A program made the position numbers and the translations under genes. 28,711 bases of DNA from Halalkalibacterium halodurans (GTDB lineage Bacteria > Bacillota > Bacilli > Bacillales > Bacillaceae_D): positions 1 to 28,711 of the forward strand of contig NZ_SNUY01000045.1 of NCBI RefSeq assembly GCF_004376175.1. Reading direction: 5' to 3'. Below, piece after piece: positions 1,707-13,100 of this stretch. The notes under the pieces were generated by a model. It was given only the letters and a program-made list of their open reading frames with translations. It did no database searches and had not been told where the DNA came from. Within the stretch, counting starts at the first letter, position 1, and each line of letters begins with the position of its first letter.

Positions 1707-4109
1707 ATGTACATTGCCCATATTCGAGAGGTTGATAAGGTGATTCAGACCCTTAAAGAGCACTTGTGCGGTGTCCAATGTTTAGCCGAAACGTTTGGAG
1801 CGAAATTGAGGTTACAACATGTAGCTGGATTGGCGGGGCTCCTCCACGATCTAGGGAAATACACGAATGAATTCAAAGATTATATCTATAAAGCTGTGTT
1901 TGAGCCCGAGTTAGCTGAGAAAAAGAGAGGTCAAGTTGACCATTCCACGGCAGGGGGCAGATTGTTATACCAAATGCTTCATGACAGAGAGAACTCCTTC
2001 CACGAAAAGCTTCTTGCCGAAGTTGTTGGTAATGCCATTATTTCACACCATTCTAACTTGCAAGACTACATTTCTCCCACCATAGAATCAAACTTCCTTA
2101 CGCGTGTTTTAGAAAAAGAACTGCCAGAATATGAGTCAGCGGTTGAGCGATTTTTTCAAGAGGTCATGACAGAAGCGGAATTGGCTAGGTATGTAGCTAA
2201 AGCGGTAGACGAAATAAAGCAGTTCACGGATAACAGCCCAACACAAAGCTTTTTCCTCACAAAATACATTTTCAGTTGTTTAATTGATGCGGATCGTACG
2301 AATAGTCGAATGTTTGATGAACAAGCTAGGGAAGAAGAACCGACTCAGCCTCAACAGTTGTTTGAGCACTATCATCAACAATTGCTCAACCATCTTGCTT
2401 CATTAAAAGAAAGCGACAGTGCGCAGAAACCAATTAATGTACTGCGGTCTGCTATGTCTGAGCAGTGCGAGTCATTTGCCATGCGGCCATCTGGTATTTA
2501 CACGCTATCCATTCCGACAGGGGGTGGGAAAACGCTGGCTAGCCTTCGCTACGCATTAAAACATGCTCAAGAATATAACAAACAGAGAATTATTTATATT
2601 GTTCCTTTTACTACAATCATAGAACAGAATGCCCAAGAAGTAAGAAACATCTTGGGAGATGACGAAAACATTTTAGAACATCATTCAAATGTAGTCGAAG
2701 ACAGCGAGAACGGTGACGAGCAAGAGGATGGAGTCATCACGAAAAAGGAGCGGCTGAGGCTCGCCCGAGACAATTGGGATCGCCCGATTATCTTTACCAC
2801 CCTTGTCCAATTCCTCAATGTTTTTTATGCGAAAGGTAACCGTAATACGCGGCGTTTACACAACTTAAGCCATTCCGTCTTAATTTTTGATGAAGTGCAG
2901 AAAGTACCGACCAAATGCGTTTCTCTTTTTAACGAAGCCCTTAACTTTCTTAAAGAGTTTGCACATTGCAGTATTCTTCTCTGTACAGCGACTCAACCTA
3001 CCCTCGAAAATGTAAAACATAGTCTCCTGAAAGACCGGGATGGGGAAATCGTGCAGAATTTGACTGAAGTCTCCGAAGCTTTTAAACGAGTTGAGATTCT
3101 AGATAAAACGGATCAGCCAATGACCAATGAGAGGTTAGCAGAATGGGTTAGAGACGAGGCGCCATCATGGGGCAGTACGCTCATCATTCTGAATACCAAA
3201 AAGGTTGTCAAAGACTTGTATGAAAAGCTAGAGGGTGGGCCTTTGCCAGTTTTCCATTTAAGTACATCGATGTGCGCTGCTCACCGCAAGGACCAGTTAG
3301 ATGAAATTCGGGCATTGCTTAAAGAAGGTACTCCGTTTATTTGCGTGACCACTCAATTGATTGAAGCAGGGGTCGACGTCAGCTTTAAATGTGTGATCCG
3401 CTCACTTGCTGGACTCGATTCAATTGCTCAAGCGGCTGGGAGATGCAATCGACATGGGGAAGAGCAGTTGCAATACGTATACGTGATTGATCATGCGGAG
3501 GAAACGTTATCGAAGTTGAAAGAAATTGAGGTTGGGCAGGAGATTGCCGGAAATGTCCTTGCCAGATTTAAAAAGAAGGCAGAGAAATATGAAGGGAATT
3601 TGCTCTCTCAAGCAGCAATGCGTGAATACTTTCGATATTACTACAGTAAAATGGACGCTAATTTAAATTACTTTGTCAAAGAAGTCGACAAAGACATGAC
3701 CAAGCTTTTGATGAGTCATGCTGTGGAAAATAGCTATGTCACCTACTATCAAAAAAAGACAGGTACTCATTTCCCTCTCTTATTAAATGGAAGCTATAAG
3801 ACGGCAGCTGACCATTTTCGCGTCATTGATCATAATACGACCTCGGCTATCGTCCCATACGGAGAAGGCCAGGACATTATTGCTCAATTAAACAGTGGAG
3901 AGTGGGTTGACGACTTATCAAAGGTGTTGAAAAAGGCGCAGCAGTATACAGTCACCCTTTATTCACAAGAAATTGACCAGTTAAAAAAGGAAGGCGCCAT
4001 CGTTATGCATTTGGACGGTATGGTGTATGAATTAAAGGAAAGCTGGTATAGCCACGAGTACGGAGTTGATTTCAAAGGAGAAGGCGGGATGGACTTTATG
4101 TCATGGTAA
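1707..4109 (+). CDS. cas3: Cas3 HD nuclease / SF2 helicase
   Basis: 800-aa ORF. It has an N-terminal HD region (HDLGKY, ISHHSNL, DADRTNS), Walker A-like PTGGGKT and an FDEVQ box. The SD GGAG lies 8 nt before the ATG, and it is the first gene of a I-C cas operon. Confidence 0.95.
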   Translation: MYIAHIREVDKVIQTLKEHLCGVQCLAETFGAKLRLQHVAGLAGLLHDLGKYTNEFKDYIYKAVFEPELAEKKRGQVDHSTAGGRLLYQMLHDRENSFHEKLLAEVVGNAIISHHSNLQDYISPTIESNFLTRVLEKELPEYESAVERFFQEVMTEAELARYVAKAVDEIKQFTDNSPTQSFFLTKYIFSCLIDADRTNSRMFDEQAREEEPTQPQQLFEHYHQQLLNHLASLKESDSAQKPINVLRSAMSEQCESFAMRPSGIYTLSIPTGGGKTLASLRYALKHAQEYNKQRIIYIVPFTTIIEQNAQEVRNILGDDENILEHHSNVVEDSENGDEQEDGVITKKERLRLARDNWDRPIIFTTLVQFLNVFYAKGNRNTRRLHNLSHSVLIFDEVQKVPTKCVSLFNEALNFLKEFAHCSILLCTATQPTLENVKHSLLKDRDGEIVQNLTEVSEAFKRVEILDKTDQPMTNERLAEWVRDEAPSWGSTLIILNTKKVVKDLYEKLEGGPLPVFHLSTSMCAAHRKDQLDEIRALLKEGTPFICVTTQLIEAGVDVSFKCVIRSLAGLDSIAQAAGRCNRHGEEQLQYVYVIDHAEETLSKLKEIEVGQEIAGNVLARFKKKAEKYEGNLLSQAAMREYFRYYYSKMDANLNYFVKEVDKDMTKLLMSHAVENSYVTYYQKKTGTHFPLLLNGSYKTAADHFRVIDHNTTSAIVPYGEGQDIIAQLNSGEWVDDLSKVLKKAQQYTVTLYSQEIDQLKKEGAIVMHLDGMVYELKESWYSHEYGVDFKGEGGMDFMSW

Positions 4110-4113
4110 AAGA

Positions 4114-4133
4114 CCTATCTTATTGCAGATAGG
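4114..4133. terminator. 7-bp hairpin just after the cas3 stop. On the minus strand it is followed by UCUUUU.
   Basis: CCTATCT (4114-4120), loop TATTGC, AGATAGG (4127-4133). The plus-strand tail is CTTTCGT and the minus-strand tail is TCTTTTA. Confidence 0.4.
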
Positions 4134-4154
4134 CTTTCGTACATACTTATTATT

Positions 4155-4186
4155 ACTTCAATCCACGCACTCGTATAGAGTGCGAC
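4155..4186 (-). repeat. Solitary CRISPR repeat in inverted orientation between cas3 and cas5
   Basis: The minus strand reads GTCGCACTCTATACGAGTGCGTGGATTGAAGT, 27/32 identical to the array repeat. The stem CGCACTC/GAGTGCG is intact and the 11-nt handle is 10/11. Confidence 0.9.
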
Positions 4187-4269
4187 ATCATGCTGTGGAA
4201 GTTATTCATTGCTCAAGCTCAATCCCTAATTAAGAATTAATTTATGACAATTGAATCAGATTAGAACTT

Positions 4270-4298
4270 ATTCTAAAAAATTTGGATTGATTTTTCAA
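4270..4298 (-). promoter_or_regulatory. Candidate sigmaA promoter for the antisense crRNA-like RNA
   Basis: On the minus strand: TTGAAA (4298->4293), a 17-nt spacer, then TAGAAT (4275->4270). Confidence 0.45.
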
Positions 4299-4317
4299 TA
4301 AAAAGTAAGTACGTACG
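4294..4317 (+). promoter_or_regulatory. Candidate Cascade binding site: TTC PAM plus a partial protospacer matching the crRNA-like RNA
   Basis: TTC lies at 4294-4296. Then 4297-4317, AATAAAAAGTAAGTACGTACG, is compared with the guide AATAATAAGTATGTACGAAAG. The mismatches are at positions 6, 12, 18 and 20. Confidence 0.55.
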
Positions 4318-4365
4318 TTTCCCACCTTGACTGCATATATTTAGTGCAGAGAGGAGGAAAAAAGA

Positions 4366-4443
4366 ATGATAACAGTTCTAATTAGCGTAAAAATCGAGAT
4401 TCTCTACCCAAAAATTTTATTACGAATAGTAAAAGCAATCTAA
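4366..4443 (+). CDS. 25-codon micro-ORF (MITVLISVKIEILYPKILLRIVKAI) with a consensus SD. Function unknown; it may not be translated.
   Basis: AGGAGG at 4352-4357 sits 8 nt before the ATG at 4366, and TAA is at 4441-4443. The ORF is too short for the ORF track. Confidence 0.3.
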   Translation: MITVLISVKIEILYPKILLRIVKAI

Positions 4444-4460
4444 AAGAGAATTTCTGAGAA

Positions 4461-4500
4461 TATCGCAGTCTGATTAAAGGAATACATTCAGGCTGCGATA
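4461..4500 (+). other. Hairpin immediately upstream of the cas5 SD
   Basis: TATCGCAGTCTGA (4461-4473) pairs with TTCAGGCTGCGATA (4487-4500) with one mismatch. No U-run follows, and the cas5 SD AGGAGG starts at 4510. Confidence 0.3.
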
Positions 4501-4517
4501 CCCCATAAAGGAGGTGA

Positions 4518-5237
<720 letters not shown>

Positions 5238-10127: not shown

Positions 10128-13100
10128 GTCGCACTCTTCATGGGTGCGTGGATTGAAATCTAACGAATTAAATTACATCGTCGAAGAAATCACGTCGCAC
10201 TCTTCATGGGTGCGTGGATTGAAATTGCGACTCCCCACTCACCATCACAAACGATCCTTGTCGCACTCTTCATGGGTGCGTGGATTGAAATGCGCCTCTT
10301 CCATCGTGATCCCCTCAGCCTTGGCGTCGCACTCTTCATGGGTGCGTGGATTGAAATAAGACATTAGCTTTTTTCTAAAAGCAAGAAAGCGAGTCGCACT
10401 CTTCATGGGTGCGTGGATTGAAATTTTTGTGATGAGATTCGTGGAGCCCAAGCGTTCAACGTCGCACTCTTCATGGGTGCGTGGATTGAAATTTTCGCAT
10501 AAACAGACATAGCTTTGACTTGCCCTGTCGCACTCTTCATGGGTGCGTGGATTGAAATTAATTGAAGTAGCTTCAAGGCTGAAAGAGGAACGGTCGCACT
10601 CTTCATGGGTGCGTGGATTGAAATACCGTATGCGTATTGTTAAGGTTTTGGAAGAACAGTCGCACTCTTCATGGGTGCGTGGATTGAAATCAGAAGCGAG
10701 GGAGCTAGCGGACAAGATTACAACGTCGCACTCTTCATGGGTGCGTGGATTGAAATCAGTCGGCTTATATCAAATTTTTAGAAAAAGAAGTCGCACTCTT
10801 CATGGGTGCGTGGATTGAAATCCTCCGCCTTTGTAGTAAATCTTTTTATCGCCAGGTCGCACTCTTCATGGGTGCGTGGATTGAAATATTAGAGCGAAAT
10901 CGCTAAAGAAAGTATTTAAAGTCGCACTCTTCATGGGTGCGTGGATTGAAATATACTCACTACATTGCAAGATGTAGGCGCTACTGGTCGCACTCTTCAT
11001 GGGTGCGTGGATTGAAATGCCCGAAAAACCTTGAAGTTGTCTGGAAGGACACGTCGCACTCTTCATGGGTGCGTGGATTGAAATTGATGACGTTTCTATA
11101 TCATCTAATGGTTTTATACGTCGCACTCTTCATGGGTGCGTGGATTGAAATTGGCTATCATCGCAGGATACATTAGTTTTTTGGGGTCGCACTCTTCATG
11201 GGTGCGTGGATTGAAATTTTGGATGAAACCATGAGAGAAATGCAGGCAGAAAGTCGCACTCTTCATGGGTGCGTGGATTGAAATCATCTTTGCCAACTCC
11301 GTCACCGCGAATCAGATAGGTCGCACTCTTCATGGGTGCGTGGATTGAAATTTGCAGCAAACATTCTATGTTTTAAAAAGCGAAAGTCGCACTCTTCATG
11401 GGTGCGTGGATTGAAATTCTCTTGTACCCCCTCAAGTTAGAGGAGATAATGTCGCACTCTTCATGGGTGCGTGGATTGAAATTTCAATCCCGACCGCAAT
11501 TCCTTCTGGGATCCATGTCGCACTCTTCATGGGTGCGTGGATTGAAATGTCTATTGTAAACTCACCTAAAGTATTATAAAATGTCGCACTCTTCATGGGT
11601 GCGTGGATTGAAATTGAGCCACACTAGAGTCTACCTATTCCTCCACCGGTCGCACTCTTCATGGGTGCGTGGATTGAAATGATTAAGTGATGTAAGTTGC
11701 CGTATTCGTCGACTCGTCGCACTCTTCATGGGTGCGTGGATTGAAATATTTGCTACATCGTGATATGTTCCCGTCCATTGTGTCGCACTCTTCATGGGTG
11801 CGTGGATTGAAATATTCATATCGATCCACAGATCGCCTAAGGCGGGAGTCGCACTCTTCATGGGTGCGTGGATTGAAATGATACCACACGATTTATAGAT
11901 ACCATCGATGACGGTCGCACTCTTCATGGGTGCGTGGATTGAAATTCGTGAGCTTTCAATAGCGGTGTTAGCTGATCCATGTCGCACTCTTCATGGGTGC
12001 GTGGATTGAAATCTTGCGTGACTTTCTTTTCCGCGTATTCTTGTACGTCGCACTCTTCATGGGTGCGTGGATTGAAATTCCGCTTTCAAACCCTCTTACA
12101 TAGTTCCTTCCACGTCGCACTCTTCATGGGTGCGTGGATTGAAATAATTAAGTGATGTAAGTTGCCGTATTCGTCGACTGTCGCACTCTTCATGGGTGCG
12201 TGGATTGAAATGCCCCGCCAATGGCTTTATCCATTCCACCTTTAGGTCGCACTCTTCATGGGTGCGTGGATTGAAATCTCCTGGTGAGTTGACATATAGA
12301 TTAATAGTGTCGTCGCACTCTTCATGGGTGCGTGGATTGAAATCTCCTGGTGAGTTGACATATAGATTAATAGTGTCGTCGCACTCTTCATGGGTGCGTG
12401 GATTGAAATCTCGAATAACCTAAACCTCGTTGAATACTTATCTCGTCGCACTCTTCATGGGTGCGTGGATTGAAATGTAACTTATCTGCAGATAGAATAT
12501 TCTTGTACCAAGTCGCACTCTTCATGGGTGCGTGGATTGAAATAATTAAGTGATGTAAGTTGCCGTATTCGTCGACTGTCGCACTCTTCATGGGTGCGTG
12601 GATTGAAATCTTCTGTGTCACGGTACTTATCGACTTCAAAAAGCACGTCGCACTCTTCATGGGTGCGTGGATTGAAATCCGTCCATTGTCTGACATGACG
12701 TTGTGACATCCATGTCGCACTCTTCATGGGTGCGTGGATTGAAATCATCCTGTAAGGTTTTATTTAGCTCGATAAAGGGTCGCACTCTTCATGGGTGCGT
12801 GGATTGAAATATCCGTACCATACAATTCTTGCGTAAAAAATGTTGTCGCACTCTTCATGGGTGCGTGGATTGAAATTATACAGCGGAAATCCAAGAAGCC
12901 TTTAAGCCAGAGTCGCACTCTTCATGGGTGCGTGGATTGAAATTTTTTTAGCACGCTCATATGCACTTATAATGTCCGTCGCACTCTTCATGGGTGCGTG
13001 GATTGAAATGAGAAAGTCAACGTATCGTGCTGTGATTCTGCGCCCGTCGCACTCTTCATGGGTGCGTGGATTGAAATTTTCGAGAAAGTCAACGTATCGA

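Follow-up and report, generated by a model that had tools for sequence, protein, structure and literature searches.

A probable micro-protein gene behind a guide-matched site in the cas3-cas5c gap of a type I-C CRISPR locus of Halalkalibacterium halodurans

That CRISPR effectors, directed by degenerate guides, repress their own genes or toxins linked to them is a recent discovery, and the cargo known from such circuits comprises RNA toxins, one KilA-N protein and large defence systems. In CrePA, found with the type I-F system of Acinetobacter, the crRNA-like RNA CreA is paired with the protein toxin CreP, a phage-derived protein of the KilA-N type that blocks cell division (bioRxiv 10.1101/2024.01.05.574328). 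In type I-C, solitary repeat units (SRU) and their crRNA-like RNAs (crlRNAs) supervise Nezha, Gabija and CRISIS systems; a TTC- or TTA-flanked partial target precedes the cargo, and the repeat unit follows it, directly before cas5c and on the same strand (bioRxiv 10.1101/2024.12.27.630466). CreR, the Cas-regulating RNA, has been shown for types I-B, I-E and V-A and predicted for I-C (bioRxiv 10.1101/2023.03.10.532045). CreTA, from haloarchaeal type I-B, joins the RNA toxin CreT to CreA.

Here, I describe a locus whose circuit logic is already known from CrePA, CRISIS and CreR, and in which a micro-ORF of 25 codons lies behind the guide-matched site. As in CrePA, a small protein gene stands directly behind a promoter that the effector would repress, in the gap between cas3 and the Cascade genes, and the guide is degenerate, repeat-derived and only partially complementary to its target. 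Unlike CrePA, the subtype is I-C, the host belongs to the Bacillota and the gene seems to share a transcript with those of Cascade; its product is a single helix of a 25-39 aa family, with no known domain and no homology to CreP found, and the toxicity known for CreP is here putative. Closer still are the I-C SRU-crlRNA systems, which agree with the present locus in subtype, in the cas3-cas5c slot and in the placement of the target at the cargo promoter; in both, one repeat unit bears an 11-nt handle as well as a 3' hairpin, the PAM is TTC, and the guide mismatches its target at positions 6 and 12. The locus likewise shows the published cargo layout of an ORF in the cas3-cas5c gap with a TTC-flanked partial target before it. 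Their cargo, however, consists of multi-domain defence systems, mostly in Neisseria, instead of one micro-protein, and in the window and all its relatives the SRU is inverted, abuts the cas3 stop and lies upstream of the target.

The likeness to CreR resides in effector genes that would be autorepressed by a degenerate crRNA aimed at their promoter: the target is upstream of cas5-8-7 with no other plus-strand promoter called, and relatives with a short gap look like plain CreR. CreR, by definition, lacks a toxin gene, whereas here a conserved gene for a possibly toxic peptide sits between target and cas5. With CreTA the locus shares a strong Shine-Dalgarno sequence (SD), a short frame, a following stem-loop, a repeat-derived guide partially matching a PAM-flanked site at a presumptive promoter, and putative repression by Cascade and guide; CreT, though, acts as RNA via rare codons, while selection here is on the peptide. 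In the Haloarcula CreTA the promoters P_creT and P_cas8 are divergent, whereas the divergent partner here is the guide's own promoter.

Layout of the guide gene, the target and the micro-ORF

The window, that is, the whole stretch of 28,711 nucleotides analysed (H. halodurans, NCBI RefSeq assembly GCF_004376175.1, contig NZ_SNUY01000045.1), holds a type I-C locus in which 417 nt separate cas3 from cas5c; cas8c, cas7, cas4 and cas1 follow cas5c, and a long array begins at position 10128 (Table 1).

Table 1. Features in and around the cas3-cas5c gap, in window coordinates
Feature	Position	Strand	Remarks
cas3	1707-4109		type I-C locus
Swappable cassette	4093-4503		last cas3 codons, terminator hairpin, inverted solitary repeat, both promoters, target, micro-ORF, hairpin
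Hairpin right after cas3 stop	4110-4138		likely 3' end of crRNA-like RNA on the minus strand
Spacer-like tail of solitary repeat	4154 down to ~4132	-	
Solitary CRISPR repeat	4155-4186	-	perfected 7-bp stem and 11-nt handle; inverted-repeat matches to array repeats, fuzzy match with 5 changes, fold
Promoter-like site of crRNA-like RNA	4270-4298	-	TTGAAA, 17 nt, TAGAAT; 10/12 consensus matches, pattern match only
TTC PAM and partial target	4294-4296 and 4297-4317	+	mismatches at positions 6, 12, 18, 20
Candidate -10	4336-4344	+	TATATT 4336-4341 overlapping TTTAGT 4339-4344; placed by alignment with relatives
SD of micro-ORF	4352-4357	+	AGGAGG, 8 nt upstream of ATG 4366
Probable micro-protein gene	4366-4443	+	25 codons and stop; shortened, diverged member of a type I-C-specific amphipathic helical peptide family
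Hairpin	4461-4500	+	arms 4461/4462-4473 and 4488-4499/4500, 14-nt loop, no U-run
cas5c ribosome-binding site and start codon	4508-4529	+	SD 4510-4517, ATG 4527; first sequence 3' of the cassette, same in all three gap alleles
cas5c	4527-5237		type I-C locus

The minus-strand fold of 4105-4200, which shows the hairpin right after the cas3 stop and the stem of the solitary repeat, has z = -3.4, and this hairpin is about 95% identical in Shouchella clausii. Three of the target mismatches (6, 12 and 18) fall at flipped positions, and the guide/target layout recurs in about 25 related loci. The -35 of the promoter-like site of the guide overlaps the PAM and the first target bases, as it also does in locus L016, so that Cascade binding would repress the guide gene as well. 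The S. clausii locus L158 has, upstream of the solitary repeat and within the presumed guide transcript, a further stretch (L158:3343-3355) similar to the 3' end of a repeat; the window retains only a degenerate trace of it near 4228-4236.

On the plus strand, the candidate -10 has as its aligned counterparts a perfect TATAAT (L158) and TGnTATAAA (L151), each lying between target and SD. Placed by this alignment, transcription would start at about 4348, leaving the SD some 4 nt from the 5' end, and the weak -35 and the promoter spacer would be covered by the Cascade footprint of 34 nt from 4297 onwards. A consensus promoter scan made no call at 4336-4344; nor did it call any other plus-strand promoter or a U-tract terminator before cas5, and no terminator-like site was seen within 4050-4600. 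The motif TTGACT at 4327-4332 had been described as lacking a -10, with which the present analysis agrees: what lies 17 nt downstream is the SD, S. clausii has TTGCCT there, and the motif was rejected as a -35. An inverted repeat, CTGCA...TGCAG (4331-4335/4345-4349), brackets the candidate -10, its counterpart in L158:3467-3485 being CTGCAT...ATGCAG; another regulator may use it as its operator.

As to the micro-ORF itself, the original prediction described its anatomy correctly, namely an AGGAGG spaced 8 nt from the start codon, a frame of 25 codons (25 aa) ending at 4443, a distance of 49 nt between the end of the matched target segment and the ATG, and a 13-bp imperfect hairpin without a U-run, which has 12-13 pairs, one of them G.U, and a 3' sequence that is not U-rich.

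The 9-bp core of this hairpin is invariant in an alignment of the Paenibacillus/Shouchella subgroup; in other lineages the position is taken by hairpins that differ in sequence, and across lineages the distance from the ORF stop is 7-17 nt. RNAalifold over all lineages returned no consensus structure, because these hairpins cannot be aligned in sequence. In L078-80 the hairpin is retained where the ORF is absent, from which it was initially read as part of the cas5 leader, a reading dropped since an exchange within the species (see below) shows it moving with the cassette. It leaves the cas5 SD outside, and a terminator/antiterminator alternative was looked for and none was seen.

A different arrangement was observed about 50 nt before cas5 in L015, L016 and L017, where a strong SD is followed by a perfect palindrome (TTGATATG, 8 nt, CATATCAA). 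In this trio a frame of 9 codons runs into the cas5 start (TAATG in L016), cas5 is without an SD of its own, and a small upstream ORF is followed by a U-rich terminator-like hairpin, owing to which that ORF may be a separate transcription unit.

A family of helical peptides in the cas3-cas5c slot

Relatives of the locus were retrieved via Cas5 (142 loci). Those with a long gap carry an SD-led ORF of 32-39 codons at the same place, 3' of the target; its stop lies 72-86 nt upstream of the cas5 ATG, and a strong hairpin and the cas5 SD follow in that order. Homologous SD-led ORFs were recognised in the cas3-cas5 slot of L002, L008, L070, L150-L161 and L163; the family recurs across several Bacillota genera. 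Every full-length copy found is preceded by a strong SD and lies 3' of the TTC-flanked target of an inverted solitary repeat (the crlRNA gene), and the peptides share a C-terminal core, Tyr-x-x-Ile-Leu-x-x-Ile-Val, flanked by Lys and Glu. Conservation in relatives which keep the repeat and target pair, by which the original prediction proposed to judge the ORF, was seen in a subset of them, where the ORF always occupies this slot behind a strong SD; many others keep the pair without such an ORF, and the micro-ORF is therefore an optional part of the circuit.

In a search of 1.84 billion representative proteins, a profile built from four members matched four small proteins and one repetitive protein of 154 aa, the latter judged spurious. 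The contigs of three of the four small matches were looked up, and all read cas3, peptide gene, cas5c-cas8c-cas7; the fourth match corresponds to the L070 peptide extended by two residues at its N terminus. The same order holds for each contig of the S. clausii cluster members listed in 33 blocks, and the three carrier genomes examined have one family copy each, at the CRISPR locus. Among 401 sampled Bacilli genomes there was no match besides the query genome itself and two weak ones, L148 and L149, which were set aside as chance matches with no cas genes nearby. The peptide had no match in Pfam, PHROGs, NCBIfam, PADLOC, PDB or Rfam, the Paenibacillus peptide had none in phage records by tblastn, and blastn of the cas3-cas5 gap against plasmids matched only the repeat. 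An ESM Atlas feature search with the peptide returned unnamed clusters only, with recognition under the useful level. Public databases name the family proteins just 'hypothetical protein', the window and Amphibacillus copies are both absent from a collection of 15 billion proteins, and neither the family nor its swappable cassette was found described in the literature that could be searched. The target-cas5 slot of a Paenibacillus locus (L029:2624-2918) holds an ORF of 97 aa that resembles an IS3-type transposase orfA and not the micro-ORF.

Run on the family alignment, AlphaFold2 predicts for the 34-aa form a single helix spanning residues 9-33 (pLDDT 83). A complex prediction of a homotetramer scored 0.05, which speaks neither for nor against self-association. 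All members are cationic and amphipathic (muH ~0.5). The window copy is far more hydrophobic (GRAVY 1.56 vs about -0.3 in the other members), and a hydropathy like that of a membrane span is confined to it (1.70, the family average being ~0.5), most members being insufficiently hydrophobic to span a membrane.

The length of the micro-ORF is by itself not significant, 24 further sense codons having P ~0.15 at the local base composition. The start motif AGGAGG-N5-10-ATG occurs 6 times in the 28.7-kb window against 1.16 expected, a count reached in no shuffle, and the other five sites are all ORF starts (cas7, cas8c and three more, including transposase-like ones). Coding constraint is apparent in frame, where pN/pS is 0.18 for L008-L151, 0.29 for L151-L157, 0.26 for window-L157 and 0.42 for window-L008 (Fisher p 4e-4 to 7e-8) against ~1 (about 0.8-2.5) in shifted-frame controls, values that come from non-independent pairs with synonymous sites near saturation and from an alignment built on protein. 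The sense frame is the only one open in all nine members tested; an antisense frame of 48 aa (4382-4528) and a GTG frame at 4344 were rejected as not conserved. A chance ORF was dismissed on the family profile matches and on the protein-level pN/pS: conserved as protein in relatives, the micro-ORF is not a chance frame. Positions 4366-4443 are thus, with high confidence, a real protein-coding gene for a cationic amphipathic helix of 25 aa, belonging to an unnamed family of 25-39 aa; the full-length copies that turned up all lie in the cas3-cas5c interval of type I-C loci in Bacillota.

Within this family the window copy is an outlier. In S. clausii L158, whose guide gene, spacer, target and promoter region are ~90-95% identical to those of the window, the ORF has its full 36 codons. 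Compared with it, the window is without 17 nt right after the SD, the old start included, and begins at a new ATG at old codon 7, in frame with the helix core and 8 nt from the same SD; the stop comes five codons early, and the old stop has since mutated. Both the N-terminal tail and the basic C-terminal tail have been lost, and conserved positions have changed (three Glu to Val/Lys/Lys, Ala to Pro, Lys/Arg to Leu), the invariant Ile-Leu and Val of the core being retained. Between the two, dN is 0.35 for the micro-ORF vs 0.07-0.10 for cas3, cas5 and cas8c, and pN/pS is 0.38 (0.39 on the window's own branch, with 8 synonymous and 11 non-synonymous changes). A perfect SD at the ideal distance from an in-frame new ATG suggests continuing selection for the helix core to be translated.

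Exchange and loss of the cassette

A case in point for the mobility of this segment concerns 12 contigs whose Cas5 is identical to that of the window, and which present three gap alleles. One is the window's, found identical in at least 3 other samples. Another (L163 = NCBI CP040441.1, L164, L167) differs wholly over 4093-4503 and contains an inverted repeat, a spacer and a TTC target of its own, a family member of 39 aa and a different hairpin. The remaining one (L168) is a clean deletion of 4102-4504. Outside the swapped cassette, identity to the window is 99.6-99.7% on both sides, and the breakpoints at 4092/4093 and 4503/4504 are sharp. Three gap alleles amid cas genes of such identity point to the regulatory cassette, and not the cas genes, as the fast-moving part.

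Losses have occurred elsewhere too. In two other lineages, L077 and L011, deletions run from the cas3 stop into the ORF, and in L078-80 just the hairpin is left; together with L168 this makes four independent guide-gene deletions, each of which takes the ORF start too, and no intact ORF without a guide gene was seen among the loci compared. In the Cas5 tree, family members and remnants all fall, scattered, within one clade of 28 rows, a distribution which implies either an old origin followed by at least 5 losses or exchange between lineages. In L150 (Logan ERR488462), cas3, cas5 and cas8c each have one frameshift relative to close relatives (in cas5, for example, a 1-nt deletion). No such damage affects its micro-ORF, and CTC replaces TTC as the PAM of the target; the locus is either decaying or affected by assembly errors.

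Possible roles of the peptide

The micro-ORF is probably the first cistron of a transcript that would start at ~4348 and run through the hairpin into cas5-cas8c-cas7, under repression by Cascade. Bound to the crRNA-like RNA from 4155-4186, Cascade would occupy the TTC PAM and 4297-4317 across the -35 and spacer of the promoter and thereby repress this transcript. On the leading, still tentative reading of its function, the peptide would stay low as long as Cascade is intact; were Cascade depleted or blocked by an anti-CRISPR, the peptide would be made in quantity and, with the membrane as its probable site of action, slow or stop growth. The peptide gene would travel with guide gene, target and hairpin as one exchangeable cassette.

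On the role of the peptide, which the original prediction had left between a toxin-like element and a leader peptide, what stands is a conserved protein behind a guide-matched site; a CreT-type RNA toxin and a classical attenuator are not supported. The former was rejected for want of a conserved rare-codon run in 11 members and for selection on the peptide, the latter for the lack of a U-tract terminator and of conserved alternative pairing with the frame. A type I toxin-antitoxin peptide was also discarded, the hydropathy of a membrane span being a trait of the window copy only and no minus-strand promoter being called opposite the ORF.

Tentatively, the peptide may be regarded as a toxin-like guard gated by Cascade, working like CreP or the cargo of CRISIS. 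The layout is that of CreTA, CrePA and CRISIS cargo, the helix is cationic and amphipathic, the guide-gene deletions also remove the ORF start, and unrelated small cationic ORFs occupy the same slot in L016, L017 and L022. Against this, guide gene and ORF, being neighbours, would be expected to disappear together anyway, many sister loci keep guide and target without the ORF, most members are only mildly hydrophobic, and the window copy has lost both tails and had three conserved acidic residues replaced. Moreover, the plus-strand promoter, placed by alignment and uncalled by the consensus scan, is common to peptide and Cascade genes, so that whenever Cascade is up-regulated in the normal course the peptide would be produced too, which is awkward for a strong toxin; and in L150 the ORF is intact despite the frameshifts (perhaps assembly errors) in three cas genes. 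This last observation fits as well with a non-toxic micro-protein, co-expressed with Cas5, Cas8c and Cas7 from an autorepressed promoter and helping or tuning the system, for example in Cascade assembly, Cas3 control or membrane localisation. Such a role is possible, if somewhat unlikely: the evidence that the gene is real and regulated applies to it equally, no promoter or U-tract terminator separates the ORF from the Cascade genes with which it would share one transcript, and most members are soluble-looking, Glu/Lys-rich amphipathic helices; but the peptide is dispensable, having been lost many times in one Cas5 clade, a clean within-species deletion included, its rate of evolution is 3-5 times that of the Cas proteins, and no partner is indicated.

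Other readings concern the window copy or its message. That, within a real family, the window allele is a shortened, drifting remnant without function is improbable, even though the loss of the original start, the early stop, the mutated old stop and the radical changes relative to S. clausii all speak for decay, as do the weakening of the homologous -10 from TATAAT to TTTAGT and a sister allele of the same species that retains a full 39-aa copy; the perfect SD with its new in-frame ATG, a branch pN/pS that is still 0.39, the invariant residues kept in the core and the recurrence of the identical allele in other samples stand against it. Little is to be expected, likewise, of a translated leader whose SD and short frame serve the cas5-8-7 mRNA in cis, by 5' protection, unfolding or coupling, the peptide being irrelevant. 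Strong SD elements at the 5' end are known to stabilise mRNAs in Bacillus, the SD here would lie ~4 nt from the 5' end, and a hairpin 7-17 nt 3' of the stop is conserved across lineages; yet purifying selection acts on the amino acids, the helix motif is conserved, relatives with a short gap express cas5 without such a frame, and the hairpin leaves the cas5 SD outside, with no terminator/antiterminator alternative seen. Least probable by far is an RNA toxin like CreT, that is, a mini-ORF sequestering a rare tRNA, or a chance ORF. The strong SD, the short frame and the downstream stem-loop are as in CreT, the second codon in the window is AUA and the ORF length is unremarkable by itself; however, none of the 11 members conserves a run of rare codons after the start, conservation is at the level of protein, and the family recurs in one slot across several genera.

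Returning to the toxin-like guard, a broader and rather doubtful proposal is that type I-C systems of Bacillota possess a guard cassette, self-contained and exchangeable, made up of guide, promoter target, gene for a helix of 25-39 aa and hairpin. It would be a minimal protein-toxin/RNA-antitoxin pair and the smallest analogue of CreP so far, arresting the cell upon inhibition of Cascade, and strains would swap its guide-target pair under the pressure of phage guide mimics.

To sum up, the micro-ORF is a reminder that genes of fewer than 30 codons escape annotation. The turnover of the cassette bears on how phage guide mimics or anti-CRISPRs shape such circuits, and peptides of 25-39 aa in a 410-bp cassette make an easy test system. 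If true, a family of type I-C peptides heading the Cascade transcript would be a new and very small class of cargo.
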